Positions 193 through 60,689 of a stretch of DNA of 64,000 nt are shown one piece after another. The notes under the pieces are model-generated. The model was not told the DNA's origin. It ran no database searches and saw only the letters and a program-made list of their open reading frames with translations. Made by a program: the position numbers and the translations under genes. The first letter of the stretch is position 1, and the number at the start of each line of letters is the position of its first letter. Source of the DNA: Eledone cirrhosa (lineage: Eukaryota); assembly GCA_964016885.1 (NCBI GenBank), contig OZ024740.1, positions 201,872,001 to 201,936,000 on the forward strand. Reading direction: 5' to 3'.

Positions 193-1934
<1,742 letters not shown>

Positions 1935-2065
1935 GTGAGGTTTTTTTTACAAAATGAAAAATAACCGAGGTGTCCTACACGAGTGGAAGTATAAAGAAAA
2001 AGGGATGAAATCAAAAATGCAACTGAAGTCTTATTTTTTTTAAAAATATATATATTTATTTGGTT

Positions 2066-2103
2066 CCTTTACCGGTTTCGCAGTTCTTCTGCTTTTCAAA
2101 AGG
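2066..2103 (-). ncRNA. Minimal type-I hammerhead ribozyme motif (mirror copy of 2176-2213)
   Basis: Exact reverse complement of 2176-2213. Confidence 0.75.
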
Positions 2104-2175
2104 TGAGTTGAGATGGAGGGTCTGTGGTTTTTCTCACGGATGTGAGAAAAACCACAGACCCTCCATCTCAACTCA

Positions 2176-2213
2176 CCTTTTGAAAAGCAGAAGAACTGCG
2201 AAACCGGTAAAGG
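2176..2213 (+). ncRNA. Minimal type-I hammerhead ribozyme motif, U3-A8 core variant
   Basis: CCTT-TTGAAAA-GCAG aagaa CTGC-GAAA-CCGG-TA-AAGG: helix I CCTT/AAGG, core UUGAAAA, helix II GCAG/CTGC, GAAA, palindromic ACCGGT helix III, GUA cleavage triplet. Confidence 0.75.
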
Positions 2214-2290
2214 AACCAAATAAATATATATATTTTTTTTAAAAATAAGCCTCCAGTTGCATTTTCGATTTCATCACTTTTTCTTTATAC

Positions 2291-5652
<3,362 letters not shown>

Positions 5653-6059
5653 ACATTCACACACACATGCTTCTGCAGTTTCTGGTTACCTAAATTCACT
5701 CAATGTATTAGTCAATCTAAGCCTGTATGTGCCACACAATGGTAATGAACTCAAAAGCAAACTTCTTAACCACACAACTATGTCTATACCTATAAATACA
5801 TATGAAGACTAAAGAAAAAGTGAGAGAAATTTGATATAGTTGATATGAAATATGAAACTGGAAGATACACTAGGATCAAAGGGGATAAGATATATAACAG
5901 TAAAATCATAACATTTTGCAACATGGAGATTAAGGAGATGCTGTGTGAAAGATAAAAATTATGTAATTAGAGCAGGGATAAGTGAAGGGAAACTTGGAGA
6001 AAAAATAGAGAATGCTAACTTTAGGGTAAATGTTGAGAAAAAAAATAGAATGGAAGAGA

Positions 6060-11978: not shown

Positions 11979-12171
11979 TTAAGGAATAAAGGTGGTTATC
12001 ATCAGCATAGAAGTGAGCATTTCCGGAGGCCAGGGCAAGTAGGTTGTTGGTGCAGAGGAGGAAGAGTATGGATCAGAGAGGGTACCATCGGTATATGCCG
12101 GAATAGTGTGATCTGATAAGACACCATTCCACAATCAAGAGGTGAATGGTGGCTATAGGGACCACAAGTGA

Positions 12172-13084
12172 GTAATTTTGCCAGGCATGGTGGGTGAAAT
12201 ATTTAGGGACCAGAAGTAATTTTGCCAGGCATGGTGGGTGAAATATTTAGGGAACAGAAGTAATTTTGCCAGACACGGTGGGTGAAATATTTAGGGGCCA
12301 GAAGTAATTTTGCCAGGCATGGTGGGTGAAATATTTAGGGAACAGAAGTAATTTTGCCAGGCATGGTGGGTGACATATTTAGGGAACAGAAGTAATTTTG
12401 CCAGGCACGGTGGGTGAAATATTTAGGGAACAGAAGTAATTTTGCCAGACACGGTGGGTGAAATATTTAGGGAACAGAAGTAATTTTGCCAGACACGGTG
12501 GGTGAAATATTTAGGGACCAGAAGTAATTTTGCCAGGCATGGTGGGTGAAATATTTAGGGAACAGAAGTAATTTTGCCAGACACGGTGGGTGAAATATTT
12601 AGGGGCCAGAAGTAATTTTGCCAGGCATGGTGGGTGAAATATTTAGGGACCAGAAGTAATTTTGCCAGACACGGTGGGTGAAATATTTAGGGAACAGAAG
12701 TAATTTTGCCAGACACGGTGGGTGAAATATTTAGGAACAGAAGTAATTTTGCCAGGCACAGTGGGTGAAATATTTAAGAACCAGAAGTAATTTTGCCAGG
12801 CATGGTGGGTGAAATATTTAGGGACCAGAAGTAATTTTGCCAGGCACGGTGGGTGAAATATTTAGGAACAGAAGTAATTTTGCCAGGCACAGTGGGTGAT
12901 ATATTTAGGGACCAGAAGTAATTTTGCCAGGCACGGTGGGTGATATATTTAGGGACCAGAAGTAATTTTGCCAGACACAGTGAGCAAAATATTTAGGGAC
13001 CAGAAGTAATTTTGCCAGGCACGGTGGGTGAAATATTTAGGAACCAGAAGTAATTTTGCCAGGCATGGTGGGTGAAATGTTTAG
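12172..13084. repeat. Minisatellite, 44-bp unit x ~21
   Basis: Unit GTAATTTTGCCAGGCATGGTGGGTGAAATATTTAGGGACCAGAA, head-to-tail with no spacers and few variant positions. Confidence 0.97.
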
Positions 13085-15743: not shown

Positions 15744-16141
15744 TACCCCGTCCATTATCACACCCCTAGATTCCTATCGCTTTCTCTTGATCATTAGCAG
15801 CTTCTCTTACAACTAATACAGGCCGACTATATATGCTCACTCCACTTTTCCCTTCACTGCTCTGTATACACACATACACACTCTTATATTAACATACTTT
15901 TGCTCATAGCTTCGTACTTACATGCATACACACTCTTTTACTCACATATACCCACACATTTCTTCTTAGCTTCGTACGGACGTATAATAACACACACACA
16001 CACACACACACATGCACAAAACGCCAGCACCAACAGTTTTGCAAGAGATGTCAACATGAATGGACCTGTTATTTTTATCTAAAGACATTTTTTCCAATTC
16101 CAACCTGCCAGTCCCCTCAATCTATCTTATTTCTCATTCTT

Positions 16142-16177
16142 TCTTCTGATGAAGGACTAGCATCCGAAACGTTAAGA
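16142..16177 (+). ncRNA. Minimal type-I hammerhead ribozyme motif of PLE pseudo-LTR
   Basis: TCTT-CTGATGA-a-GGA ctagca TCC-GAAA-CG-TT-AAGA: canonical CUGANGA/GAAA core, helix I TCTT/AAGA, palindromic AACGTT in place of helix III. Confidence 0.8.
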
Positions 16178-16423
16178 CCTTCTTCCTGCTATTTCAAGCG
16201 TTAACCTAATATATCCCTTCCATATACTGTACCGATTGTGTTGTTATTTGTTTACCTTTTACATACATATATATCTGTGTATACATGTTTAGACATATAC
16301 ACATGTATACACATCCAACACCCATGCAAGCATGAAAAGCTGGTGTAAAATGGTGACGACGATACATGTATATATACACACGCGTATGTATATATACATA
16401 TATATATATACAGCAATGTTACA

Positions 16424-24195: not shown

Positions 24196-24905
24196 AGTTC
24201 TATTGAGGACAAGTCGTATTTTAATTATTCTGTCGTTCACTCTATTTACGTCTATTATCTTATCTGCCCACTTTTCTGCTACCATGATTCCTACTCCACC
24301 CAGCCCATCGTCGTTTCCCACCCAGAAAAGCTTATAACAACGTTTTTACCCCTCAATGAACCTAGCAGACCCACCCCTCCACCTGGTCTCTTGAATACAA
24401 CAAACATCGACCTCCTTACGTTCAAGCATTTCTACAACCTCGTTAGCGCGACCCTTTAGGGTGCCTACAGTTATGGTACCAACTCTGAAGTTTTGGATTG
24501 CGTTTGGGGGTTGGGGGGCGGTGAGGGGCGGGGGGCGATGGGGGTTATGTTAGCCGTCCGCGGTCGAAACAATGAGGAGTGCTCGCATTCTCGTCCAAGG
24601 GGTGAATTTGTCTTTATCTTTGGCATTGTCGCTGAGCGTCCAGATTTTTCTCTCTCACCTCCACTCTCCAGGATTCCGCAGTCCATCCATCCATCATATA
24701 TCGTATATCGAAAGGCAACCAGGCAAGCGATAGTATAGGCCTCTGGTTTCTGATTGGTCCGCGTACTAATACTGGTGATACGTGGGGGCTGTTTTATGAT
24801 TGGTCCACGTAATAGCAATGGTGGTGTGTGGGGGTGGGAAGGGAGGGGTGTTGGGTAGCTAGCAAGAAGGTAATGATTGAGATGGGTCTATGCATTTAAC
24901 AAGCG
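24196..24905 (-). mobile_element. RTE LINE 5' end: UTR plus start of APE endonuclease domain (runs into the gap)
   Basis: Minus strand reads FRVGTITVGTLKGRANEVVEMLERKEVDVCCIQETRWRGGSARFIEG*KRCYKLFWVGNDDGLGGVGIMV..NDRIIKIRL (one stop). Confidence 0.9.
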
Positions 24906-24958: not shown

Positions 24959-29968
<5,010 letters not shown>

Positions 29969-30228
29969 CATCATCATCATCATCATCAGGTTAGTGTCCG
30001 TGTTCCACGCTTGCATGGGTTTGGACGGGAGTTTTCCCACTTGAGGCAAGAGTGATTGTCTTGCTCGCATAGGACTGTCTGGCGGGTTTTCTACAGCTGG
30101 ATGCCCTTCCTAATACCAACCACATTTACAGTGTGGGGCTGGGAGGTTTTTACCGTGTTGCCTACACGGCCACATTTACAGCGTGGACTGTGTGTTTTTT
30201 TGTTGTGACACCTACACGATCTCATTTG
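29969..30228 (-). mobile_element. RTE 3' UTR-only copy with (GAT)n tail
   Basis: Reverse complement closely matches 32279-32542 and 51948-52324. Confidence 0.9.
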
Positions 30229-32184: not shown

Positions 32185-32542
32185 CAAACTACACCCCGTC
32201 CCGCCACCACCCCCACCCCATCCACACCACCCCGTTCTATGTAAAGTTATGTTGGTGCCGCGCCATCCAGGCCGAAACAAATGAGATCGTGTAGGTGTCA
32301 CGACAAAAAAACACACAGTCCACGCTGTAATGTGGCCGTGTAGGCAACACGGTAAAAACCTCCCAGACCCACACTGTAAATGTGGTTGGTGTTAGGAAGG
32401 GCATCCAACTGTATAAAAACTGCCAGACAGTCCTATGCGAGCAAGACAATCACTCTTGCCTCAAGTGGGACTACCCCCGTCCAAACCCATGCAAGCGTGG
32501 AACACGGACGTTAAACGTTGATGATGATGATGATGATGATGA
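30766..32542 (+). mobile_element. 5'-truncated, young RTE-clade LINE
   Basis: Uninterrupted RT ORF, ~335-bp 3' UTR and (GAT)n tail; acacacatactcat on both sides (possible TSD, ambiguous inside the repeat). Confidence 0.95.
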
Positions 32543-43800: not shown

Positions 43801-46265
43801 CAACACCATCATTTTCTCTCAGTGACCTGTGCCTGCAAGACCTGGAAGGACATAGCAAAGATCAACAGAAAACTGAATGCAGTTCATTAAAAGTGCCTCA
43901 GAAAGATTATGATGGTCACCTGGCAAGACCAGATTACAAATGAAGAGATCATGAGGAGAGTAAAGTTATGAACCACTGCAGGAATTAATTATACAAGTAA
44001 TGATTCCATCTGGCTAGCCACACTACCTGATCACCAGTACTTGAAAGCAATGATGATTTGGACTGCTCTTGGAGGCAAAAAGAAAAAGAGCAGGCTGAAG
44101 ATAACCTGGTGATGGACATTTCAAGACAATCTAAAAGCCGTCAGCAACACCTGGAATGGATGTGAAAGGGCAGCAGTGGATCATGTGCATTGAAGGATGC
44201 TTGTTACGCAATGTGCTACTCACCATATAAGAGACTAAGACTAAGATACACACAGGGTTGGATTTAGACCTTGGGGGCCCAGGACACTTCAGATTTGGGA
44301 GGCCCCTCATGCACAAGAAATTAGAATACACAGCAAACACCCCAATTTTACATATCAAAGTTAGCTTGGCACAAGTAATTGCAATTGAAAAGTTATACAT
44401 ACAGGTATTAAATTCAAAAATTCTAACCATCCTAAAACTAAAAAGCCCAGCTGAAGGCACAAATAAATTGCTACAGTCGTAGCTTTATCTTCTTTGTAGA
44501 GGGAAAAGATTAGTATCCATTTGGAGTTTTTTTTATATAGCTTAGTCAGCTTGCAGGGCATTGCCAATGATCCCTTTTCAGAACTAAGACTATTGGAAGG
44601 GAAATAGGAAGGTATCCACAGACCCAGAACACTCTGGCAAAGGCACCCAAAGGACAGGTGGTAATGTTAAACCAGACAACAGATTAAATCTACCACCTTC
44701 ATCAGAGAAAGACTAATTACCTATATTCTGTCATTGAGTGAAGAAGTGCCAAGAGCTGAAGAAGGAGTGGAAGAAGGCCACAGACGAAGATGACCCAAAA
44801 AAAGAAATGGGCAGAGGTGGTGAAACCTGATCTCAAGAAAATGAACCTTACAAAGGAAAGAAACAAGTAGAGAGATGCTTGACTGGTGAGAATTCATCTT
44901 ACCCATGCAAGCATGGAAAAACAATGATAATAATGATGTCCACAAAGAAATTAGCATCTTGTAGCTATTTATAGAGTACATAAACTAAAACATGGATGTG
45001 TGAGCAAATAGCATGCATGCGAGTGTGTGCATGTATATGATGAATAAGGGGAAGGGGGAAGGCTGTGAGGAAGTAAAATGTGTGAAATATGTGGATTTAT
45101 GTATGTGCAAGACATCACAGTGTATGGTGTAGGTGGATGTATGGCAAAATATGTTAGTGTATGGATAGAGAAGACAGGTGGCATGGAGTATGTATGCAGT
45201 ATGTGGGTGTCTGTGTAGAAAAAAGGTGGTGAAATATAGTGTGTATTTGTGATAATTGGGGGAGGAACTTAGAGGAAAGCAAGTAAGTTAATACCAGCAG
45301 GGTAAATGTGTTCAAGTAGAAGATCAGTTGTTGTTCACAATGATGCCAGAAAATGGGAGAGGCATAGTGTTGTATAATTGTACAAACAACCAGATATAGA
45401 TGAGAGTTGCCAGGGAACAGATGTGGCAAACTACAGGCTTGATTGATTTGGTTGTATTGTGACAAATATTCAACAAATGTTCCTAAAAATAATCAGCTAA
45501 TTAACAAGTTTTCTCCTGTGTATGGTAGCTGCTGCTTCTTATTGTGTCCACAAGTGTGTCAGTTACAAAGCTTGGATAGATGTGGTTCCGCCACAGCTGA
45601 ACACATTGCTGTCCTTTCTCATTAAACTCTGCCAAGTCTAACACTGTGCAAGGTGTTCCAGCAGGAGGCATATCAGGAGGTGCTGCGTAGTCTGTGGTTC
45701 GATGTCGCAGTCACACACAACGCCCCCAACCTTTAAATATCCTCATTTGTGGTACCCAGTTATGGTAGCTACAAAGTCGGTACTTAATGCAGTTGATGAA
45801 ATGGTCTATGATAAGGAAAGATGACACAGATGTGTGTAAACTAGTGATGATGTAAACGAAACAGTAACTGTTGCAAACTACCACCAATAAGTCAGTCACT
45901 ACCTCTCTTCCATCTTGACATCAAAACAAGATGGCGTAGGACAGAACAAAGGAGAGGCACAAAAACAAAGAAAAGAATCCCCAGTCACTGAAGAGGTCAC
46001 AGAATGTATGACGAAAGAACTTTGACAATATATGAACAACCGTCTGGTTATGGAACCAACCAACCAACCGGAAATTTATAAATTTAATTTCTAATAAATT
46101 GAAGTGAAAGCAACTGGTGCGTGTGTTTCTTATTGGCAACATGAACCTCCCAAAGTATAACAATATCGGTTTCAACACACGTTTTCAGATAAAGAATCTT
46201 GCTAAACAAATTCAGTAACGAAATACAAATATATACATATATATATATATATATACAAATATATA

Positions 46266-46561
46266 CATCATCATCATCATCATCATTGTTTAACGTCCAT
46301 ATTCCACGCTTGCATGGGTTTGGACGGGAGTTTTCCCACTTGAGGCAAGAGTGGTTGTCTTGCTCGCATAGGAGTGTCTGGCAGATTTTCTACAGCTGGA
46401 TGCCCTTCCTAACACCAACCACATTTACAGTGTGGAACTGGGAGGTTTTTACCGTGTTACCTACACGGCCACATTACAGCGTGGACTGTGTGTTTTTTTG
46501 TCGTGACACCTACACGACCTCATTTGTTTCGGCCTGGATGTTGTGGTACCAACATAACTTT
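46266..46561 (-). mobile_element. RTE 3' UTR-only copy with (GAT)n tail
   Basis: Reverse complement matches 32240-32542. Confidence 0.9.
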
Positions 46562-46980
46562 ACATATATATATATATATACAAATATATATATATACAAA
46601 TATATATATACAAATATATACATATATATATATATACAAATATATACATATATATATATATATACAAATATATACATATATATATATATACAAATATATA
46701 TACAAATATATATACAAATATATACATATATATATATATACAAATATATATACAAATATATACATATATATATACAAATATATACATATATTTATACAAA
46801 TATATACATATATATATACAAATATATACATATATATATACAAATATATACATATATATATACAAATATATATATATATATACAAATATATACATATATA
46901 TATATATACAAATATATACATCTATATATATATATACAAATATATACATCTATATAAATATATACATCTATATATATACA

Positions 46981-47251: not shown

Positions 47252-48226
47252 GTTTCTTTTATTTGCCACTAGGGCATCAAAAGTGGGACAAGTACAAAGG
47301 GGGGAGTTTACACAAAAAGGCGTCCTCAATAAGGAGGAGGCAATAACAAAATATAAAAATAAAATAAGATATAACAAAAAATAAAATTTTTTTTTAACAA
47401 AATCCTCAATAGAGAGGAGGCGCCTTGGGGGGTCGCACACACCCCCGAAAAAAGTGTGCAACCCTTCTCCTCAGGAGCACAGAGAAGGGGTGCTCCCTTG
47501 GTCTTTCATCTTCCTCACCTATAGTCTGATGTAGAGTGAAGGCCCATTCACACGGGCCATTCTCGCCACTTTCACCCATCTTTCATAGAAACGGCTGGGG
47601 TGCAGCACCTCTCTCTCCATCCTGATCCTTCTTCCGAAATGATATCGGAAGAAACGGACCAGTTGTTGGCCAGAGAGAAAGGTGCCCGACCTCAGTCCTT
47701 TCAGACGCGTCCACCATACAACCTCTTTCGCCATGGCTATTACGCACAGAAACACCGCCTCTGCTTCATCTTTGAAGGGGGGAGGCGGCTTGATCATTAC
47801 AATAGACTCGGTGGTCAACCGGATCGGTCCCACCCTTGACAGCAGTTGTTCGACATAGCCCCACAGATCGGCTACGCCCGAGCAGTGTACCAATGCGTGT
47901 GCAACGGTTTCCTCGTCGCACACGCATCTGGGACAGATCTTTTTGGCGGGGTCCCTACCCGGGCGCCCGTGTCTGTAGAGCCTTTCTCGAACGGGTAAAG
48001 CCCCTCGGTAGCACTGCCAGGCCAGGGACTTCTAGAAGTTGTCCATAGGTCCCGGGCTGAATGTCCTACCGAACAGGCTGGCCAGTTCGTCCTCCTCCAT
48101 GTCTAGGGCTTCTCCGAGGGCGTCGTCGCACCTGCTGCGTACCAGCCCTCTATAGAATGTTGCGGTGGAGTCTCCACTGATAACCGGATCCGCCTGCCAG
48201 AGGGCGGTGAGCGCCTGGGCACACTC
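47252..48226 (-). mobile_element. Tx1/L1-like LINE 3' fragment with CCHC (zf-RVT type) motif
   Basis: WQCYRGALP..ERLYRHG..KICPRCVCDEETVAHALVHCS..LW; premature stop at 48032-48034; 3' UTR ends in AATAAA then (TA)n. Confidence 0.85.
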
Positions 48227-48366
48227 ATACAAATATATACACATATATATATATATATATACAAATATATATATATATATATATATACAAATATATACAT
48301 ATATATACAAATATATACATATATATACAAAAATATATACATATATATATATATATATACATACAA

Positions 48367-48397
<31 letters not shown>

Positions 48398-48638
48398 CAT
48401 ACAAATATATACATATATATATATATACATACAAATATATACATATATATACAAAAATATATACATATATATACAAATATATACATATATATACAAATAT
48501 ATACATATATATACAAATATATACATATATATATATACAAAAATATATATATATACAAAAATATATACATATATATATATATACAAATATATACATATAT
48601 ATATATATACAAAAATATACATATATATATATACAAAA

Positions 48639-48681
<43 letters not shown>

Positions 48682-48754
48682 AATATATACATATATATAT
48701 ATACAAATATATACATATATATATATACAAAAATATATACATATATATATACAA

Positions 48755-48785
<31 letters not shown>

Positions 48786-48870
48786 CAAATATATACATAT
48801 ATATATATACAAAAATATATACATATATATATATACAAAAATATATACATATATATATATATATATACAA

Positions 48871-48901
<31 letters not shown>

Positions 48902-48903
48902 CA

Positions 48904-48939
<36 letters not shown>

Positions 48940-48966
48940 TTTTGTATATATATATGTATATATTTG

Positions 48967-49001
<35 letters not shown>

Positions 49002-49034
49002 TTGTATATATATATATATATATGTATATATTTG

Positions 49035-49069
<35 letters not shown>

Positions 49070-49298
49070 TTTTGTATATATATATATATATATATTTGTA
49101 TATATTTTTGTATATATATATATATGTATATATTTGTATATATATATATATATATATGTATATATTTTTGTATATATATATATATATATGTATATATTTT
49201 TGTATATATATATATATATATATATATATTTTTGTATATATATATATATATATATATATATTTTTGTATATATATATATATATATATGTATATATTTT

Positions 49299-49334
<36 letters not shown>

Positions 49335-49505
49335 AATATATACATATATATATATACGAAAATATATACATATATATATATATATACAAATATATACACA
49401 AAAATATGTACATATATATATATATATATACAAATATATACATATATATATACAAAAATATATACATATATATATACAAAAATATATACATATATATATA
49501 TACAA
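48227..49505. repeat. (TA)n-CAAA microsatellite with an internally inverted block
   Basis: TACAAA units switch to TTTGTA over ~48930-49305 and back. Confidence 0.97.
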
Positions 49506-51810
49506 ATCATCATCATCATCATTTTACGTCCACTTTTCCCTGCTTGCAAGGGTGGGACGGGTCTTATTCAGCACAGCATCTCTCCACTCGTCACGGTCCC
49601 TCGTCATCTCCACCGTGAGCTTCAATGATCTGAGGTCTGTTCTCACCACCTCCGCCCATGTTTTTCGTGGTCTACCTCTACCACGTCTTCCTTCAACTGG
49701 CATTTCCTGGCACTTCTTCACCCATCGGTCATCCTCCATGCGCATCACATGTCCATACCACCTCAGTCTCCTCTCCCGTACACTACATTCTATCCCTCTC
49801 AGACACAGTTTCTCTCTCAACACATTTATGCTGGGTCGTTCACGCACATTTACACTGCACATCCAACGGAGCATGTTTGCATCATTTCTCTCCAGCCGTC
49901 GCATATCCTCTGCGGTTGCTGCCCATGTCTCACTACCATGCAGATCGCGCTCCTCACACAGGCATCATACAACCAGCCTTTCGTACGCAGGGAGAAACCC
50001 TTCTTCGTCAACAGAGGAAGCAGCTCCCTAAACTTCTTCCAACCCGTCCTTATTCTAGATACTATGGCCTCGGAACACCCTCCTCCCATGCTAATCTGAT
50101 CTCCTAGTTACCGGAAGCTATCCACCACTTCTATAGCGCCCTTTCGCATTTGAAAAATGTGTCTATCAGTGCGACTTCTACTGTCTAATTTCCCTGTACA
50201 TCTACTGCATACATATTTCTCCCTACCTGTTAGTTTGCCTGCTATCCCACTACATCTCTTGTGTACCCAGGACCTACATTGTGTGCATTTTATAGAATTT
50301 ATGCCAGTTCCTTTTCTGCATATCGAACATGGCCATTTCCCTGACGGAATCAGGGTTTTGTCCTCTTTTCTACTCATCAACACTTTTGTCTTAGCTAGAT
50401 TTACTCTCAGTCCTCTTGCTTCCAACTGCTGTTTCCATAGCCGGAATTTATTCTCTAGCTCCTCTACTGATTCTGCTATAAGAGCCAGATCGTCAGCATA
50501 GAGAAGTTCCCATGGACAGCCAGTCTTAAACTCCTCTGTTATGGCTTGGAGGACTATAATGAACAAGAGCGGGCTGAGGACCGAACCCTGATGTACTCCT
50601 ACTTGTATCTGGAATTCCTCACTAAACTCCATTCCTACCCTGACTTTACTGAGAGTACCTCTGTACAAAGTTTGCACTGTCCTCACAAGCCATTCCTCAA
50701 CACCTAGCTTCCTTAGGGACCACCAGATGACAGATCGGGGTACCCTATCAAAGGCCTTCTCTAGGTCAACAAAGGCTAAGTATAGTGGCTTATTCTTCTC
50801 TAAGAACCTCTCTTGCATTTGTCTCACCAAGAAGAGGGCATCTGTTGTACTCTTCCCAGGCACAAAACCAAACTGCATCTCATCTAGTTTGACCCTTTCT
50901 CTAATTAGTTGTGCTAAAATCCTTTCTGCCACTTTCATAACCTGATCTATCAGTTTTATACCCCTATAATTGCTCCTCTCCAAAGCATCCCCTTTACCTT
51001 TGTAGCAATTTATGAGAATACTGCTGCACCAGTCTATAGGTATGACACCACCATATATAGCCTGATTGATGATGCGTGCAACCAGTTTAGTGCCTACGTC
51101 CCCTGATGCCTTCAGCATCTCAGCAACTATTCCCGATGGTCCGGCCGCCTTACCATTTTTCATTTCCCTAATCGCCTCTTGGACCCTATATTCGTCAATC
51201 TCAATAGCTGGTCCCTCTGTCGGATCTACCAAGGGTAATTTCTCTCTCTCCCATTCGTTCTCCACATTCATCAGTCTCTCATAATGACATTTCCAGGCCT
51301 CCTTTTTCTGGTCATTCGTGACACTAAGTACACCGGCATCATCCCGGACACATTTATCTCCAACAACATCCTGATTTGCATTGACACACTGCCTTGCAAT
51401 GTGGAACACCGCACGCCTCTGATCTTCCCGTCGCAGAACATTGGCAAACCTCCTACTCTCTGCCTCCCTGCGTGCTAAGTACACCTGACGTCTAGCTTCT
51501 CTCTTAGTGGCTGTATATTCTTCCCTACTCCCACCCTTTTTCCAAGCCTTCCATGCTAGTCTTTTGTCTCTAATAGCCTTATCTACTGTACTGTTCCACC
51601 ACCAGGTCACTCTCTGTCTGGTTGGAGCTCTGCTCCAGCCACAGGTTTCATCAGTAGCCTGCAGCAAGTTGTCACGTAAGAACTTCCAGTTATCTATGTC
51701 ATACGTCTCTAAATCGTCTTCTTTTTCGTCATATACATCTTGAAGGGCTTTCCTAAATTTGTATTTTAGTGAAAGGTCTTTTAGCTTCCAGACCTTTCTT
51801 CTCCACCTTA
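49506..51810 (-). mobile_element. 5'-truncated RTE LINE (short-3'UTR subfamily), disrupted near the C-terminus
   Basis: ORF 50108-51667 with WWNS, KNGKAAGPSGI, NYRGIKL, DLEKAFD, YADD and Cys finger; continued by 49850-50089 and 49524-49904 after a stop and frameshift; (GAT)n tail at 49506-49522. Confidence 0.95.
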
Positions 51811-52324
51811 CCTAAATACAAAGTAAAAACCTACTACAGTCAGTAGGCACCTCTATCAAAACACACCCCCGTCCCACCACCTCCACCCCACCCACACCGC
51901 CCCTATCAATGTAAAGTTATGTTGGTCCCACAACATCCAGGCCGAAACAAATGAGATCGTGTAGGTGTCACGACAAAAAACACACAGTCCACGCTGTAAA
52001 TGTGGCAGTGTAGGCAACACGGTAAAAACCTCCCAGCCCCACACTGTAAATGTGGTTGGTGTTAGGAAGGGCATCCAGCTGTAGAAAACCCGCCAGACAG
52101 TCCACGCTGTAATGTGGCCGTGTAGGCAACACGGTAAAAACCTCCCAGCCCCACACTGTAAATGTGGTTGGTGTTAGGAAGGGCATCCAACTGTAGAAAA
52201 CCCGCCAGACAGTCCTATGCGAGCAAGACAACCACTCTTGCCTCAAGTGGGAAAACCCCCGTCCAAACCCATGCAAGCGTGGAACACGGACGTTAAACCT
52301 GATGATGATGATGATGATGATGAT
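51811..52324 (+). mobile_element. RTE 3' UTR copy with internal 113-bp tandem duplication and (GAT)n tail
   Basis: Matches 32170-32542; 51984-52096 is repeated at 52097-52208. Confidence 0.9.
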
Positions 52325-52775
52325 ATATATACATATATATATATATACACAAATATATACATATATATATATATATATATACACAAATATATACATATAT
52401 ATATATATATATATACAAATATATACATATATATATATATATATACAAATATATACATATATATATAAATATATACATATAAATATATACATATATATAT
52501 ATATATATATACAAATATATACATATATATATATATATATATACAAATATATACATATATATATATATATATACAAATATATACATATATATATATATAT
52601 ATACAAATATATACATATATATATATATATACAAATATATACATATATATATACAAATATATACATATATATACAAATATATACATATATATACAAATAT
52701 ATACAAATATATACATATATATACATATATATACAAATATATACAAATATATACATATATATACAAATATATACA

Positions 52776-52875
<100 letters not shown>

Positions 52876-52890
52876 AATATATACATATAT

Positions 52891-53263
52891 ATCATCATCA
52901 TCATCATCATCATCACCGTTTTACGTCCGTTCTTCCACGCTAGCATGGGTTAGACGGGTTGTCCTGTTGTGGGCAGTGTCTGGTCGGCTGACCATGCCTT
53001 GCTCATACAGGAACTGATCTGGCTTGATTTCTACAGCTGGATGCCCTTCCTAACACCAACCTCATTTACGGTGAGTGCTGGGTGCTTTTTCGTGGCGCCT
53101 ACACGTCCACTTTACAGTGTGGGCTGGGTGCTTTTTTGCCGTGGCACCTCCACGACCACCTTGCGGTGTGTGGGGGGGGGCATATTGTTTATATGCTTCA
53201 GCATGTACCCATGGGAGGTCGGGTACCCTGTATTACTGCGTGACGCCAGAAGTCACGGTCGTG
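52891..53263 (-). mobile_element. RTE 3' end copy, near-identical to 53623-53991
   Basis: Direct comparison; (GAT)n tail at 52891-52915. Confidence 0.9.
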
Positions 53264-53428
53264 AACAAATATATACATATATATATATATATACAAATAT
53301 ATACATATATACATATATATACAAATATATACATATATATATATATACAAATATATACATATATATATATATACAAATATATACATATATATATATATAC
53401 AAATATATACATATATATATATATACAA

Positions 53429-53467
<39 letters not shown>

Positions 53468-53622
53468 TATACATATATATATATATATACAAATATATAT
53501 ATATACAAATATATACATATATATATATATACAAATATATACATATATATATATATATACAAATATATACATATATATATACATATATATACATATATAT
53601 ATATAAAAATATATACATATAT

Positions 53623-56600
53623 ATCATCATCATCACCGTTTTACGTCCGTTCTTCCACGCTAACATGGGTTAGACGGGTTGTCCTGTTGTGGGCAGTGTC
53701 TGGTCGGCTGACCATGCCTTGCTCATACAGGAACTGATTTGGCTTGATTTCTACAGCTGGATGCCCTTCCTAACACCAACCTCATTTACAGTGAGTGCTG
53801 GGTGCTTTTTCGTGGCGCCTACACGTCCACTTTACATTGTGGGCTGGGTGCTTTTTTGCCGTGGCACCTTCACGACCACCTTGCGGTGTGTGTGTGGGGG
53901 GGGGGGGGCATATTGTCTATATGCTTCAGCTTGTACCCATGGGAGGTCGGGTACTCTGTACTACTGCGTGACGCCAGAGGTCACGGTCGCGTGTCATTGC
54001 CTTTGAGAGGTGTAATTGGGTAAGGTCGGCTTTTGTCACCTCATCCCAGGTCATCTTGGGTTTCCCCACTCCGCGGTCTCCATCGACTTCTAGTGCTCTG
54101 CACCTTTTTATGCAGCTGTCATCCTTCATACGCATCACATGTCCATACCAGCGCAACCGCCTCTCCTGCACACAGCATTTGATTCCTCTTATGCTCAGTC
54201 TCTCTCTCAATTTATTTATGCGTTGTCGTTCACGTATATTACTGTTACACATCCATCGGAGTATGCAGGCTTCGTTTCTCTCTAATCTACGTAAGTCTTC
54301 CACCTTCAGCGCCCAGGTCTCACTACCATGCAACATCGCTGTTCGGATACACGCATCATACAGTCTGCCTTTCATTCTGAGGGAGAAGCCTTTTGCAGCT
54401 AGCATGGTAGTAGTTCCCTAAACTTCTTCCATCCCGTTCTTACCCTAGTTATTGTACTTTCTGAACACCCACTTCCGCTGCTAATTCGGTCACCTAGGTA
54501 GCAGAAGCTGTCTACTGTTTCTACAGAGCCCTCCAAGAGAGAGATTGGTGGTACTTGTTTCCTGTGGCTGTTTGCTGCTTGCTGTCCCAGCACAGCTGCT
54601 GCATGTGAAGCCTACATTCTTATTTAAGCTTCCTAAAATCCCGCTACATCTCTTGCGTACCCATTGTTTGCATTTGGGGCAGAGAATGGAGTTCCTACCT
54701 ACACCTTTCCTACATACTGAGCAAGGCCATTTCCCTGAGGGATCTGGGTTCTGTTTTCTCGTCTACTTACAAGGACCTTAGTCTTTGTCATGTTGACTTT
54801 GAGACCCTTTCTTTCTAGTACCTGCTTCCAAGTTTGGAATTTATTCTGTAGTTCTACCATAGATTCAGCTATAAGTGCGAGGTCATCAGCATACAGGAGT
54901 TCCCATGGGCATCCGGTCTTAAACTCCTCCGTTATTGCCTGCAGGACTATGATGAACAGGAGGGGGCTAAGAACAGAGCCCTGGTGGACCCCAACCTGTA
55001 CGCTAAATTCCTCGCTATACTCATTGCTAATCCTAACTTTGCTGACTGCTCCCCTATACATGGCTTGTATCGCTTTCACAAGCCATTCATCTACTCCTAG
55101 TTTTCTAAGAGCCCACCAGATTACAGCACGTGGAACTCTGTCAAAGGCTTTCTCAAGGTCAACAAATGCCAAGTAGAGTGGCTTACTTTTAGCTAGATAC
55201 TTTTCCTGTTACAAACCCAAATTGCATCTCGTCTATTTTCACCCGGTCCCTAATCAACTGTGTGCTATAACTCTTTCTGTTACTTTCATGACCTGGTCCA
55301 TCAACTTTATACCTCTATAGTTTCCTCTATCTAGTGCATCACCTTTACCTTTGTAGCAATTGACAATGATGCTACTGCACCAATCTTTTGGTATGACACC
55401 ACCTAGTATTACCTGGTTAACAATACGTGTGGTTATAGTGTGACCTACAGACCCAATGGACCGGTTGCCTTCCCCATCTTCATATCTTTGATTGCCTTAC
55501 TTACTACGTTGCTGCTGACTTGTACTGCTGGCCCCTCTATAGGGTCTACTTGGAGTAGGGTCTCTTCTTCCCATGCATTCTCCTCATTTAGTAATCTATC
55601 ATAATGACTCTTCCATGCATCTTTCTTCTCAGCACTTGTGAGGGCAAGCTCACCTTTATCATTCCGGATACACTTCTCTCCAATGACATCACAACTCTCT
55701 CTGACACACTACCTCGCAATCTTGAACACCTCCTGTTTCTGGTCCTCACGTTGCAAAACATGCTTGAATTTTCTATCCTCTGCTTCCCTCCGAGCTAAGT
55801 ATACTTGTCGCCTAGCTTCCCTCTTGGTCTCTATGTAATGTACCCTGCTCCCCCCATTCTTCCATTCTTTCCATGCCTGTCTCTTGGCCTTAACTGCCTC
55901 ATCTACCTTATTGTTCCACCACCAAGTCACTCTCTTCCTGCTTGAGGTCTTACTCCAGCCACAGACCTCATCCGTCGCCTCTAGTAAATTATTTTTTAGG
56001 AACTCCCAGTTCTCTTCTACATTGAATGTCTCTATCTGTTCTTCTTTACTGTTGTAGGCGTAAGAGTAAAATATCTTTAAATCTGTTACTGGTTGAGGGG
56101 TCTTTCAGCTTCCAGATCTTTCTTCTCCAGGTTCGTCTAGTTCTGACCGTGAGGTCGCTGACAACTAAGTTATGTTGGGATGTACATTCCTCACTAGGGA
56201 AGGCTTTTGTGTTTACGACCGTCCATCTGTCACGTCCTCTGATGAGGATAGAATCTATCTGACTGGAGTGCTCCCCTGATCTATAGGTGATCAGGTGGTT
56301 GTTGGGTTTTTTAAAGTTTGTGTTACATATCGACATGTCATTGGCGTCGCAGAATTCTAGAAGTCTGAATCCTTCCTCATTTCTTGTGCCAACCCCATGG
56401 CCTCCATGTACTCTATTGAAGCCGTCGCAGTGTTGACCTACGTGTCCGTTAAAATCTCCTGCGATGATTAAGAAGTCATTGTCGTCTGTTAGAGCAGTAG
56501 TGTGCATTAGGGACTCGTAAAACCTATCCTTAAGTTCGTCTGGCAGCCCCGATTGGGGTGCGTAAGCTGATATTATTGTGGTAATTGTTTTATTCAGGAC

Positions 56601-56924
56601 TAGTCTGAGTTTAATTATTCTTGCATTTACCCTGTACACTGAGATTACTTTATCTACCCACTTGTCAGCTAGTAGTATACCTACACCACCCATCCCATCG
56701 TCACTTTCCACCCAGAAAAATTTGTAGCACCGACTTTTTCCTACAAGGACTCTAGCAGACTCTCCTCTCCATCTAGTCTCTTGCACACAGCATACATCAA
56801 TTTCCTTTCACTCTAGCATTTCTACGATTTCTCCTGCTCTTCCTTTCATTGAGCCTACATTGATGGTACCAACTCGGAGTTTTTGGGAATTTGTCAACAC
56901 TCGTAGGGAAGGGTCTCTGGATTG
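53623..56924 (-). mobile_element. Near full-length RTE LINE (APE endonuclease + RT), inactivated by frameshifts
   Basis: [41 protein letters not shown] (EN; 56046-56786); [29 protein letters not shown] across ORF fragments 55709-55930, 54699-55172, 54399-54593 and 53926-54405. Confidence 0.95.
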
Positions 56925-57573
56925 TATATATATATATACAATATACATATATATATATATATACAAATATATACATATACAAATATATACATATATATAC
57001 ATATACAAATATATACATATATATACATATACATATATATACATATACAAATATATACATATATATACATATACAAATATATACATATATATACATATAC
57101 ATATATATACATATATATACATATACATATATATACATATACATATATATACATATATATACATATACATATATATACATATACATATATATACATATAT
57201 ATACATATACATATATATACATATACATATATATACATATATATACATATACATATATATACATATACAAATATATACATATATATATATACAAATATAT
57301 ATATACAAATATATATATATATATACAAATATATACATATATATATATATATACAAATATATATATATACAAATATATACATATATATACAAATATATAC
57401 ATATATATATACAAATATATACATATATATATATATACAAATATATACAAATATATACATATATATATATACAAATATATACATATATATATATATACAA
57501 ATATATACATATATATATATATACAAATATATACATATATATATACATACAAATATATATAAAATATATACAT

Positions 57574-57608
<35 letters not shown>

Positions 57609-58547
57609 AATATATACATATATATATACAAATATATACATATATATATACAAATATATACATATATATATACAAATATATACATATATATATATATATA
57701 TATACAAATATATACATATATATATACATACAAATATATATAAAATATATACATACAAATATATATATACAAATATATATATATATACAAATATATATAT
57801 ATACAAATATACAAATATATATATATATATATATATACAAATATATATATATATATACAAATATATATATATACAAATATATATATATATATATATACAA
57901 ATATATATATATATACAAATATATATATATATATATATACAAATATATATATATATATATATACAAATATATATATATATATATATACAAATATATATAT
58001 ATATATATACAAATATATATATATATATATACAAATATATATATATATATATACAAATATATATATATATATATACAAATATATATATATATATACAAAT
58101 ATATATATATATATACAAATATATATATATATATACAAATATATATATATATATATACAAATATATATATATATATACAAATATATATATATACAAATAT
58201 ATATATATATATATATACAAATATATATATATATATATATATATACAAATATATACATATATATATACAAATATATACATATATATATACAAATATATAC
58301 ATATATATATATATACAAATATATACATATATATATACAAATATATACATATATATATACAAATATATACATATATATATACAAATATATACATATATAT
58401 ATATACAAATATATATATACAAATATATACATACAAATATATATACAAATATATACATACAAATATATACACAAATATATACATACAAATATATACATAT
58501 ATACATATCCAAATATATACATATGTATACAAATATATATATATATA
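56925..58547. repeat. (TA)n-CAAA/CA microsatellite
   Basis: Direct reading of sequence. Confidence 0.98.
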
Positions 58548-58719
58548 ACGAAGGAAATGTGGTAAGGAACCAGGTGGACCATAACGCACCAAAGTACTCA
58601 ATACTTAGGGTAGTAGAGTGGGTAATAGGAACGAGTAGGACCCCGACGGCTGAGCTCAAGACTAGTCCAGAATTAGCCGTCGAAACGGCTTAAGCTCAGC
58701 CGTCGGGGTCCTACTCGTT

Positions 58720-58724
<5 letters not shown>
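58548..58724 (-). mobile_element. Short fold-back element in (TA)n (family B, copy 2)
   Basis: 36-bp arms 58625-58660 and 58689-58724 (1 mismatch), 28-nt loop; same left terminus ACGAAGGA and same right terminus TTCCTAT as 34849-35041. Confidence 0.75.
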
Positions 58725-58759
<35 letters not shown>

Positions 58760-58949
58760 CAAATATATACATATATATATATATACAAATATATACATTT
58801 ATAATATATATACATACACAAATATATGCATAGCTTTATATGTTTATATATATATCTTTAAATATATTTAAACACACACACACATAGCTTTATATATGTT
58901 TACATACATATCTTTTAATGTATTTAAACACACAGACACGTGTGTGTGT

Positions 58950-58980
<31 letters not shown>

Positions 58981-59194
58981 AAAGGTAAACAGAAATAACA
59001 ACACAATCGGTACAGTATATGGAAGGAATATATTAGGTTAACGCTTGAAATAGCAGGAAGAGAGTCTTAACGTTTCGGACGCTACTCCTTCATCAGAAGA
59101 AAGAATGAGAAATAAGATAGATTGAGGGGACGGGCGGGTTGGAATTGGAAAAAATGTCTTTGGATAAAAATAACAGGTACATTCATGTGGGCAT
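58981..59194 (-). mobile_element. Solo PLE pseudo-LTR fragment
   Basis: Reverse complement closely matches 16050-16262. Confidence 0.85.
59065..59100 (-). ncRNA. Minimal type-I hammerhead ribozyme motif
   Basis: Minus strand TCTT-CTGATGA-a-GGA gtagcg TCC-GAAA-CG-TT-AAGA. Confidence 0.8.
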
Positions 59195-59354
59195 CGTTAG
59201 TGTTTGACGTCTGCTTTTTCGATTCTGGCATGGGTTGGACGCGACAGCACCTATTGAGGAAATGTTCTATAACTGGGATACACATCGTACAACTACATAC
59301 ATCAACCTTTAACGCCCATTTGGTCTGTTTACACGCACACTAATATATATATAA

Positions 59355-60252
59355 CTTTCTTTTTATTTGCCACCAGGGCATCAAAAGTGGGACAAGTACA
59401 AAGGGAGGAGTTTACATGCAAAGGCGTCCTCAATATGGAGGAGGCAATAACAAGATATAAAAGTATAAAAATAAAATAAAATATAACAAAATAAATTTTG
59501 TAACAAAATCCTCAATAGGGAGGAGGCGCCTTGGGGGGGTCGCACACACCCCCGAAAAAAAGTATGCAACCCTTCTCCTCAGGAGCACAGAGAGGGGGTG
59601 CTCCCTTGGTCTTTCATCTTTCTCACCTATAGTCTGATGTAGAGTGAAGGCCCATTCTCGCCACTTTCACCCATCTTTCATAAAAACGGCTGGGGTGCAG
59701 CACCTCTCTCTCCATCCTGATCCTTCTTCCGAAATGATATCGGAAGAAACGGACCAGTTGTTGGCCAGAGAGAAAGGTGTCTGACCTCAGTCCTTTCAGA
59801 CGCGTCCACCATACAACCTCTTTCGCCATGGCTTTTACGCACAGAAACACCGCCTCTCCTTCGTTTTTGAAGAGGAGAGGCGGCTTGATCGTTACAATAG
59901 ACTCGGTGGTCAACCGGATCGGTCCCACTCTTGACAGCAGTTGTTCGACATAGCCCCACAGATCGGCAATGCCCGAGCAGTGTACCAAAGCGTGTGCAAC
60001 GGTTTCCTTGTCGCACACGCATCTGGGACAGATCTTTTTCGAGGGGTCCCTACCCGGGCGCCCGTGTCTGTAGAGCCTTTCTCGAACGGGCAGAGCCCCT
60101 CGGTAGCACTGCCAGGCCAGGGACCTCTGGAAGTTATCCATGGGTCCCGGGCTGAATGTCCTACCGAACAGGTTGTCCAGTTCGTCTTCCTCCATGCCTA
60201 GGGCTTCTCCGAGGGCGTCATCGCACCTGCTAACCACCAGCCCTCTATAGAA
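59355..60252 (-). mobile_element. Tx1/L1-like LINE 3' fragment
   Basis: Highly similar to 47252-48157; open frame [15 protein letters not shown]...CPRCVCDKETVAHALVHCS. Confidence 0.85.
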
Positions 60253-60689
60253 TGACGAGGATGATATATATACACACACACACACATATATATCATCATC
60301 ATCATGAACATCATTCAACGACCGGTTTCCTTGTTACCAAAAGTTGGAAATATGTATACACAAAAACACACACAATATATATATATGCACATATATATGG
60401 ATATATATATGTACAAACGTTCATCCATATATATATGGATATATATATAAACACACCGAAATATATGCATATATATACCTATGTACAAATGTGTTTAAAC
60501 ATATGTATACAAACATGCAGATATATATATATATACACGCACATACACACAGACTAGGCAGGAACTCATTACTAAGAACTTCATAGCTAAGTATAAACCA
60601 CTTAAAATACACCCATCACCCGTTTCTTCACTGAATATTTTGGCCATCCGAATAAGATGGCAATTAAACATAATACACCTGATATATAT

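Follow-up and report, generated by a model that had tools for sequence, protein, structure and literature searches.

A 363-base island at positions 1928-2290 of the 64-kb window (the whole stretch of DNA that was analysed) forms a near-perfect fold-back in which two copies of a high-copy repeat stand head to head. We consider it quite probable that the island consists of two short ends of this repeat, likely pseudo-LTRs (pLTRs) of a Penelope-like element (PLE), that arrived in a TA microsatellite in one insertion event, each with a predicted hammerhead ribozyme with a U3-A8 core. The repeat itself is likely a PLE; its origin and the route by which the island formed are reconstructed by analogy with published elements.

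Anatomy of the fold-back and its TA-rich setting

The two arms (1989-2137 and 2142-2290) pair without gaps across 149 nt in the arm alignment, separated by a 4-nt apex (2138-2141, GGAT), and their inner 96 nt contain no mismatch, exactly as the first-pass annotation had described them. All seven mismatches lie in the outer 53 nt. The 17-mers at 2032-2048 and 2231-2247 are identical on the plus strand and thus represent one micro-inversion, which accounts for three of the seven mismatches (2039-2041 / 2238-2240), so that the arms differ by five events: four substitutions and the micro-inversion. Confinement of all five to the outer 53 nt has p of about 0.006 if differences are distributed uniformly. 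The arm ends are also unequal, the left arm being longer than the right by 61 nt (1928-1988). The features of the island and its surroundings are as follows.

196-1927, no strand: (TA)n array to the left of the island, probably the target of insertion (TRF; ACAGATAT on both sides)
1928-1988, minus: 3' extension of the left arm that the right arm lacks, a putative PLE-type one-sided tail (arm alignment; covered in all four aligned runs)
1989-2137, minus: left arm, a pseudo-LTR-like copy truncated at its 5' end, with the minus strand as sense
2066-2103, minus: predicted minimal type-I hammerhead; U3 = 2099, A8 = 2094, predicted cut after A17 = 2070
2138-2141, plus: apex GGAT; 2139-2141 is right-arm family sequence, and most other copies with coverage of 2138 have A there
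2139-2183, plus: 14 open codons to the TGA of the hammerhead core (2181-2183) (translation)
2142-2290, plus: right arm, a pseudo-LTR-like copy truncated at its 5' end, with the plus strand as sense
2176-2213, plus: predicted minimal type-I hammerhead; helix I 2176-79/2210-13, helix II 2187-90/2196-99, U3 2180, A8 2185, GAAA 2200-03, A17 2209, predicted cut after 2209
2219-2224, plus: AATAAA hexamer 3' of the ribozyme, mirror copy at 2055-2060, putative signal
2231-2247, plus: AT-rich quasi-palindrome, centre inverted relative to the other arm (2032-2048) (17-mer comparison)
2291-5653, no strand: right part of the (TA)n array (TRF)

The TA array that encloses the island extends over 196-5653 (TRF), in agreement with its earlier placement inside a (TA)n tract, and the AATAAA hexamer noted after each ribozyme was likewise found, at +2219 and mirrored at 2055. 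A degenerate unit, ACAGATAT, runs in one orientation at 1421-1887 and then at 2313 and 2397, flanking the island on both sides; this is the arrangement expected if the island entered a pre-existing tract. No target-site duplication is discernible around the island. Across the array the degenerate unit flips, with ATATCTGT at 231-1369 and 4177-5567 and its reverse complement at 1421-2397, a switch of orientation that suggests inversion or patchwise expansion of the tract around the island.

Several other repeats were observed in the window. One, with a short internal duplication, occurs at 1-195 and 24609-24834 (79% alike across 180 nt) and directly precedes two of the longest TA arrays (196-5653 and 24961-29959); it may be the terminal part of an element that targets TA tracts or seeds them. 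A minisatellite with a 44-nt unit (20.8 copies, 93% matches) occupies 12171-13084, and a SINE-like repeat of 200-280 nt is present in at least four copies (29996-30228, 32238-32516, 46288-46566 and 51906-52298), which are 94-97% identical and adjoin microsatellites.

The hammerhead motif and its predicted folding

The first-pass annotation had assigned a minimal type-I hammerhead with a U3-A8 core to each arm and had proposed a descriptor search permitting that pair. The descriptor used here, run over the 64-kb window in loose and strict versions, represents a type-I hammerhead in which any Watson-Crick pair is allowed at 3-8. It returned exactly two matches, +2176-2213 and -2103..2066, both in the arms, and so recovered both proposed motifs. 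The two share helix I CCTT/AAGG, core TTGAAAA, helix II GCAG/CTGC, GAAA, CCGG and TA. In controls for chance, 30 block-wise dinucleotide shuffles of the window gave two loose and no strict matches in total, and among 5000 arm shuffles 13 had a loose match and none a strict one; the hammerhead pattern in the arms is far above chance. Rfam hammerhead models gave no match at the island at E<=10, nor any match at gathering score in the whole window, and the prediction that a CUGANGA search would miss a hammerhead of this kind was borne out. The G10.1-C11.1 pair is present (G2187-C2199), A9 (2186) leads directly to G10.1 so that the extra nucleotide between 9 and 10.1 is absent, and helix III is a very short palindrome (ACCGGT, 2203-2208) that would permit dimer formation.

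Two further patterns of this type were observed in the window. A second repeat, in two copies that are 94% identical (16047-16259 on the plus strand and 58981-59195 on the minus strand), contains minimal hammerhead patterns at +16143-16176 and -59099..59066 that have a canonical C3-G8 core and an extra nucleotide before helix II. Each copy ends 3' at a microsatellite, there is no similarity to the U3-A8 family, and the repeat is likely another PLE pLTR family; the occurrence of an unrelated C3-G8 hammerhead family twice in the window indicates that such motifs are common in this genome. A looser hammerhead-like pattern at 45985-46025 (plus strand; CTGAAGA core, 3-bp helix I), detected with the relaxed descriptor only and present once in the window, may be due to chance.

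In the 51-mer 2170-2220, helix I is predicted with a probability of 0.65-0.68 and helix II with 0.9, and helix III is not formed; in the full 153-nt sense arm, the values for helices I and II fall to 0.01 and 0.21. The 51-mer is not unusually stable compared with shuffles (z -0.68), and the case for a hammerhead therefore rests on the core pattern, not on energy. Two copies of 2170-2220 in trans are predicted to assemble into a double hammerhead (-22.5 kcal/mol) in which helix III reaches 0.92-1.00, helix I 0.77-0.83 and helix II 0.93. The fold model also gives U3-A17 pairing, which the first-pass annotation did not take into account, a probability of 0.52 in the monomer and 0.58 in the dimer, an analogue of the C3-G17 trap that PMC3884650 proposes for minimal hammerheads; such pairing may trap the ribozyme, and its cleavage activity may be low.

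Read-through RNA is predicted to form a duplex of about 149 bp (hairpin, -226 kcal/mol), and the probabilities of the hammerhead helices are 0.0 both when the 363-nt island is folded whole and when a read-through transcript ends immediately 3' of the ribozyme. These folds agree with the earlier suggestion that a transcript sequesters its own ribozyme, as read-through RNA is predicted to do in its duplex. RNAs that start at the apex, a point that the first-pass annotation did not consider, would hold one arm only and lack the fold-back.

The long duplex in read-through RNA, together with the PLE-derived small RNAs reported in rotifers (PMC3846280), might be taken to indicate a hairpin gene selected by the host to supply long dsRNA to Dicer or ADAR, with the ribozyme as its switch. 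We regard this as very improbable, given that the island lies within a 5.4-kb microsatellite, that no promoter or gene context was found at the locus, that the island has private changes relative to the repeat family (1986, 2003, 2013 and 2138), and that the Rfam microRNA matches are below gathering score and reflect any perfect hairpin. A microRNA precursor was rejected as an identity in its own right, the best Rfam match scoring 56.9 bits against a cut-off of 88, with no match at gathering score in the window.

The novelty implied for this motif in the first-pass annotation does not hold. According to the accessible portions of Cervera and de la Pena 2014 (PMC4209133), PLEs of Schistosoma (Cercyon, Schistosoma mansoni) contain about 1,300 minimal U3-A8 hammerheads, and hammerhead pairs on opposite strands, 100-700 bp apart and with palindromic helix III, already occur in PLEs. 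The present motif matches those of Cercyon in its type-I topology, 4-bp helix I, G10.1-C11.1 pair, short palindromic helix III and U3-A8 core, and in belonging to a large dispersed family with opposite-strand pairs about 100 bp apart. It departs from the Schistosoma motifs described there in its 4-bp helix II (7-8 bp in theirs), in having no extra nucleotide between 9 and 10.1, in the A at position 17, and in host and sequence family. The same source reports that minimal PLE hammerheads cleave at a low level and as dimers only, a dimer model that is repeated in the review PMC6765202; for the activity of U3-A8 cores, PMC4209133 was the only report found in the literature as far as it was accessible.

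The repeat family in public sequencing runs

Words of the island were found in 16 of the 21 public runs listed (12 studies), with half or more of the words in three runs and small shares in runs X12-X16. Four runs (X1, X4, X8 and X19) were aligned to 1928-2172 at >=80% likeness, with 2029-2070 left out. The 3,460 contigs in X1 and 2,304 reads in X19 that match the island, both runs being from organism A, identify a high-copy repeat, and the tail 1928-1988 belongs to the family, as it is covered in all four aligned runs. X4 and X8 contribute six and two contigs, respectively, at low depth, one from each being identical to window 2071-2137; for these other organism labels, the few contigs could reflect trace DNA, close relatives or transfer, and the 13 labels carry no conclusion on host range or horizontal transfer.

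The aligned copies mostly continue upstream of the apex. Past 2137, 257 X19 reads, one X4 contig and one X8 contig run into one shared upstream sequence, and before 2139 a further 414 X19 reads and 53 X1 contigs clip into upstream family sequence. Both arms are therefore 5'-truncated pieces of a longer element, and since 2139-2141 belongs to the family sequence, the apex marks a junction, not an evolved loop. The upstream reads account for 671 of the 738 X19 reads at the apex (257 + 414), with 67 counted at 2138, which contradicts any view of the palindrome as the usual form of the family: it is a minority form, for which the 9% of X19 apex reads is a ceiling, because some of the 67 apex-spanning reads may be short overhangs placed end to end. 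A MITE or fold-back DNA transposon was rejected on the same count of X19 apex reads that are not fold-backs, together with the 61-nt difference between the outer ends and the lack of a discernible target-site duplication.

Conservation in the family is consistent with the predicted motif. Variants reach 5% at neither U3 (2099) nor A8 (2094) in any aligned run, and one of the 32 positions in 2071-2102 varies at >=5%, compared with 25 of the 136 flanking positions (Fisher p 0.02, for reads at >=80% likeness), a comparison limited by a likeness filter that favours conserved copies and by the few loci of the RAD library. Position 2103, the outermost 5' base of helix I, is changed in about half of the X1 depth and in most X19 reads; its partner strand falls within the left-out 2029-2070.

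Inversion at or near the apex recurs. Among the X1 contigs listed, six of eight span the apex with at least 31 letters on each side (81-89% likeness, depth 6.8-37.9); three of the six are gapless against the window, with the same spacing, and three have 2-4 gaps. Two joints link other left-arm points (2001 and 2101) to 2139 and 2142, and in 22 and 10 X1 contigs AT-rich sequence directly adjoins 2137/2140. We infer from this that 2138 is a preferred 5' boundary. The nucleotide at 2138 is A, the family state, in 56 of the 67 X19 reads (seven starts) and in the 45 X1 contigs counted there; the island has G.

Fold-back chimeras are a risk in high-copy repeats, and the island's own junction, letter for letter, is absent among the X1 contigs listed. 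Both points would favour a fold-back artefact that assembly or library construction generated from a single copy, were it not for the four substitutions, micro-inversion and unequal ends that distinguish the arms, the six diverged X1 contigs that fold back at about the same place, and the coverage of the apex by X19 reads from another study. An artefact is accordingly hardly credible.

The same contigs bear on whether the head-to-head pair moves as a non-autonomous unit of its own, descended from one founder palindrome with a fixed centre whose transcripts PLE protein re-inserted repeatedly, copying from the 3' tail through the apex. The window spacing of three of the six spanning contigs (among those listed), the A at 2138 in most reads and contigs counted, the greater likeness of the inner than of the outer arms, and the report that pLTRs alone suffice for mobilisation in trans (PMC3846280, in its accessible portions) all point in this direction. 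However, the other three spanning contigs are gapped and joints occur at 2001 and 2101, as would result from separate events at one hot spot; no more than 67 of the 738 X19 reads span the apex, some perhaps only as overhangs placed end to end; and a 149-bp hairpin of such predicted stability would be a poor template for RT. On balance, we hold a mobile palindrome to be distinctly unlikely.

Probable Penelope-like affinity and the proposed origin of the inverted pair

Our preferred reading, one insertion of two truncated PLE ends, draws on three traits of the island that are described for PLEs: an inverted 5'-truncated pair, a one-sided tail and a (TA)n target. An inverted 5'-truncated copy with a one-sided tail is reported in bioRxiv 2021.04.23.441226 and PMC3846280, and a (TA)n bias without a visible TSD in PMC8557442, as far as the accessible text of each extends. 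The island tail (61 nt) exceeds the 30-40 nt of the one-sided tails found in print, which counts against the PLE reading. In the closest parallels, Pen2a_Av of Adineta vaga (PMC3846280) and the scheme of Craig et al. 2021, a 5'-truncated inverted copy similarly abuts a direct copy, with repeats of about 200 bp, a tail at one end only, a microsatellite target and no visible TSD. Compared with those insertions, as described in the portions available, the present locus has no ORF and no second direct pLTR, so that the inverted pair stands alone; its tail is 61 nt rather than 30-40 nt, and its centre seems to recur among copies.

The parallel with retrozymes is looser. Animal non-LTR retrozymes, in the accessible descriptions (PMC7229834; bioRxiv 10.64898/2026.07.22.740005), are likewise short, non-coding and PLE-related, with a type-I hammerhead, but they form head-to-tail tandems with canonical hammerheads and circular RNAs. 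Here the copies are head to head, and no transcript would therefore have two sense ribozymes. The earlier description of a non-coding unit, PLE-derived or retrozyme-like, can be retained for its PLE derivation and for the non-coding nature of the sequence here, and not for the likeness to retrozymes. A non-LTR retrozyme was rejected because the copies lie on opposite strands, with no further copy in the 64-kb window.

No parent RT/GIY-YIG ORF could be tied to the repeat, for which the visible upstream sequence is 30 letters. Pfam analysis of 46 of the 157 window ORFs, chosen by eye as non-microsatellite, detected no GIY-YIG domain; five of the 46 had matches (RVT_1 twice, zf-RVT twice and Exo_endo_phos once), all at least 45 kb away. 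LINE-type fragments, several broken by TA-rich arrays, were observed in 47400-60300, and the matches are listed here.

47522-48031 and 59626-60333, minus: zf-RVT (Pfam)
50111-51811, minus: RVT_1 + PHD ORF (Pfam)
54702-55208, minus: RVT_1 (Pfam)
56049-56807, minus: Exo_endo_phos (Pfam)

The frame at 2139-2183 is open for 10 more codons upstream in X19, X4 and X8 (by eye), and six of seven family codon changes in it are non-synonymous (by eye); the core UGA is a weak candidate for the stop codon of the parent ORF. Hammerhead-pattern scans returned three metagenome-contig loci and 10 viral-contig loci, all 13 of which are attributed to chance as none has both 4-bp helices or a BLASTN match to the arm, and a family-specific 27-letter pattern gave no loci in prokaryote genome contigs and viral contigs.

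The mechanism that we propose borrows from Poseidon PAc of Anolis carolinensis (Frangieh et al. 2024, PMC11167929). In the accessible portions of that work, the PLE protein acts on both strands of AT-rich DNA, which it cuts and extends, two internal RNA start sites for RT define the tail, and the hammerhead lies near the pLTR/ORF border; the protein is a predicted dimer, and cleavage by the PAc hammerhead depends on it. The AT-rich target is common to PAc and the island. PAc differs in its C3-G8 core and in an ORF start inside the hammerhead, no start codon being seen at that spot here. By analogy, an RT/GIY-YIG protein would nick AT-rich DNA on both strands, and two cDNAs would start at two internal tail sites, giving the ends at 1928 and 1989/2290. 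Both would stop near 2138, the preferred 5' boundary and maybe the 5' end of the RNA, and would be joined 5' end to 5' end, with 3' ends facing outward into (TA)n and the tail on one side. The accessible text of PMC2377424 places a transcription start and internal promoter of Penelope within its pLTR, so 2138 may correspond to an RNA end. The ribozyme would serve the cycle of the parent element, acting as a dimer via the ACCGGU palindrome, probably slowly or with help from protein; at the present locus its most likely role is that of a passenger.

A simple two-template insertion alone leaves the clustering of differences in the outer 53 nt unexplained. The perfect inner 96 nt, with all five differences outside, hints at snap-back synthesis or later conversion, that is, at a fold-back in which one arm was copied from the other, by hairpin-primed second-strand synthesis or by arm-to-arm conversion after insertion. 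Both arms also share alleles at 2103/2104 and 2122/2157, sites that are variable in the family. Against such copying, the arms carry two different alleles at 2026/2253, each also present among family members (the right arm's state in 30 of 58 X19 reads), which hints at two templates; the arm ends differ by 61 nt of family sequence; and no private mutation common to both arms was seen in 2071-2137. We judge copying of one arm from the other unlikely, if far from negligible, and it alters how the inversion formed, not the identity of the repeat.

With the reading of one PLE insertion, the island adds one more PLE family with an already published ribozyme variant, and beyond known features there remains the observation that inverted pairs without an ORF recur at one centre. 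Fixed-centre, ORF-less inverted pLTR pairs were not found described in the open-access literature. PLE insertion might generate such pairs in a programmed manner, or they might themselves constitute a non-autonomous element of palindromic form. Two RT subunits would each copy from a start site in the tail as far as the RNA 5' end near 2138, the cDNAs would be joined, and the product may re-amplify as a unit; we put this forward tentatively, as a possibility that is rather improbable.

For the study of these elements, hammerhead searches limited to CUGANGA or to Rfam miss a high-copy family, and the repeat is a natural substrate for asking whether a U3-A8 core with A17 cleaves. The origin of inverted pLTRs and tails in PLEs is named as an open question in the accessible text of PMC8557442, and a family in which numerous short inversions share one boundary makes the two-primer model testable by sequence alone. 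If head-to-head pairs with a fixed centre do prove to be such a product or element, many 150-bp hairpins would have been seeded, with the ribozyme off in read-through RNA and free to dimerise in RNAs that start at the apex, and genomic DNA would, through a high-copy family with a near-fixed U3-A8 core, preserve the positions of the PLE transcription start and of the two RT start sites.
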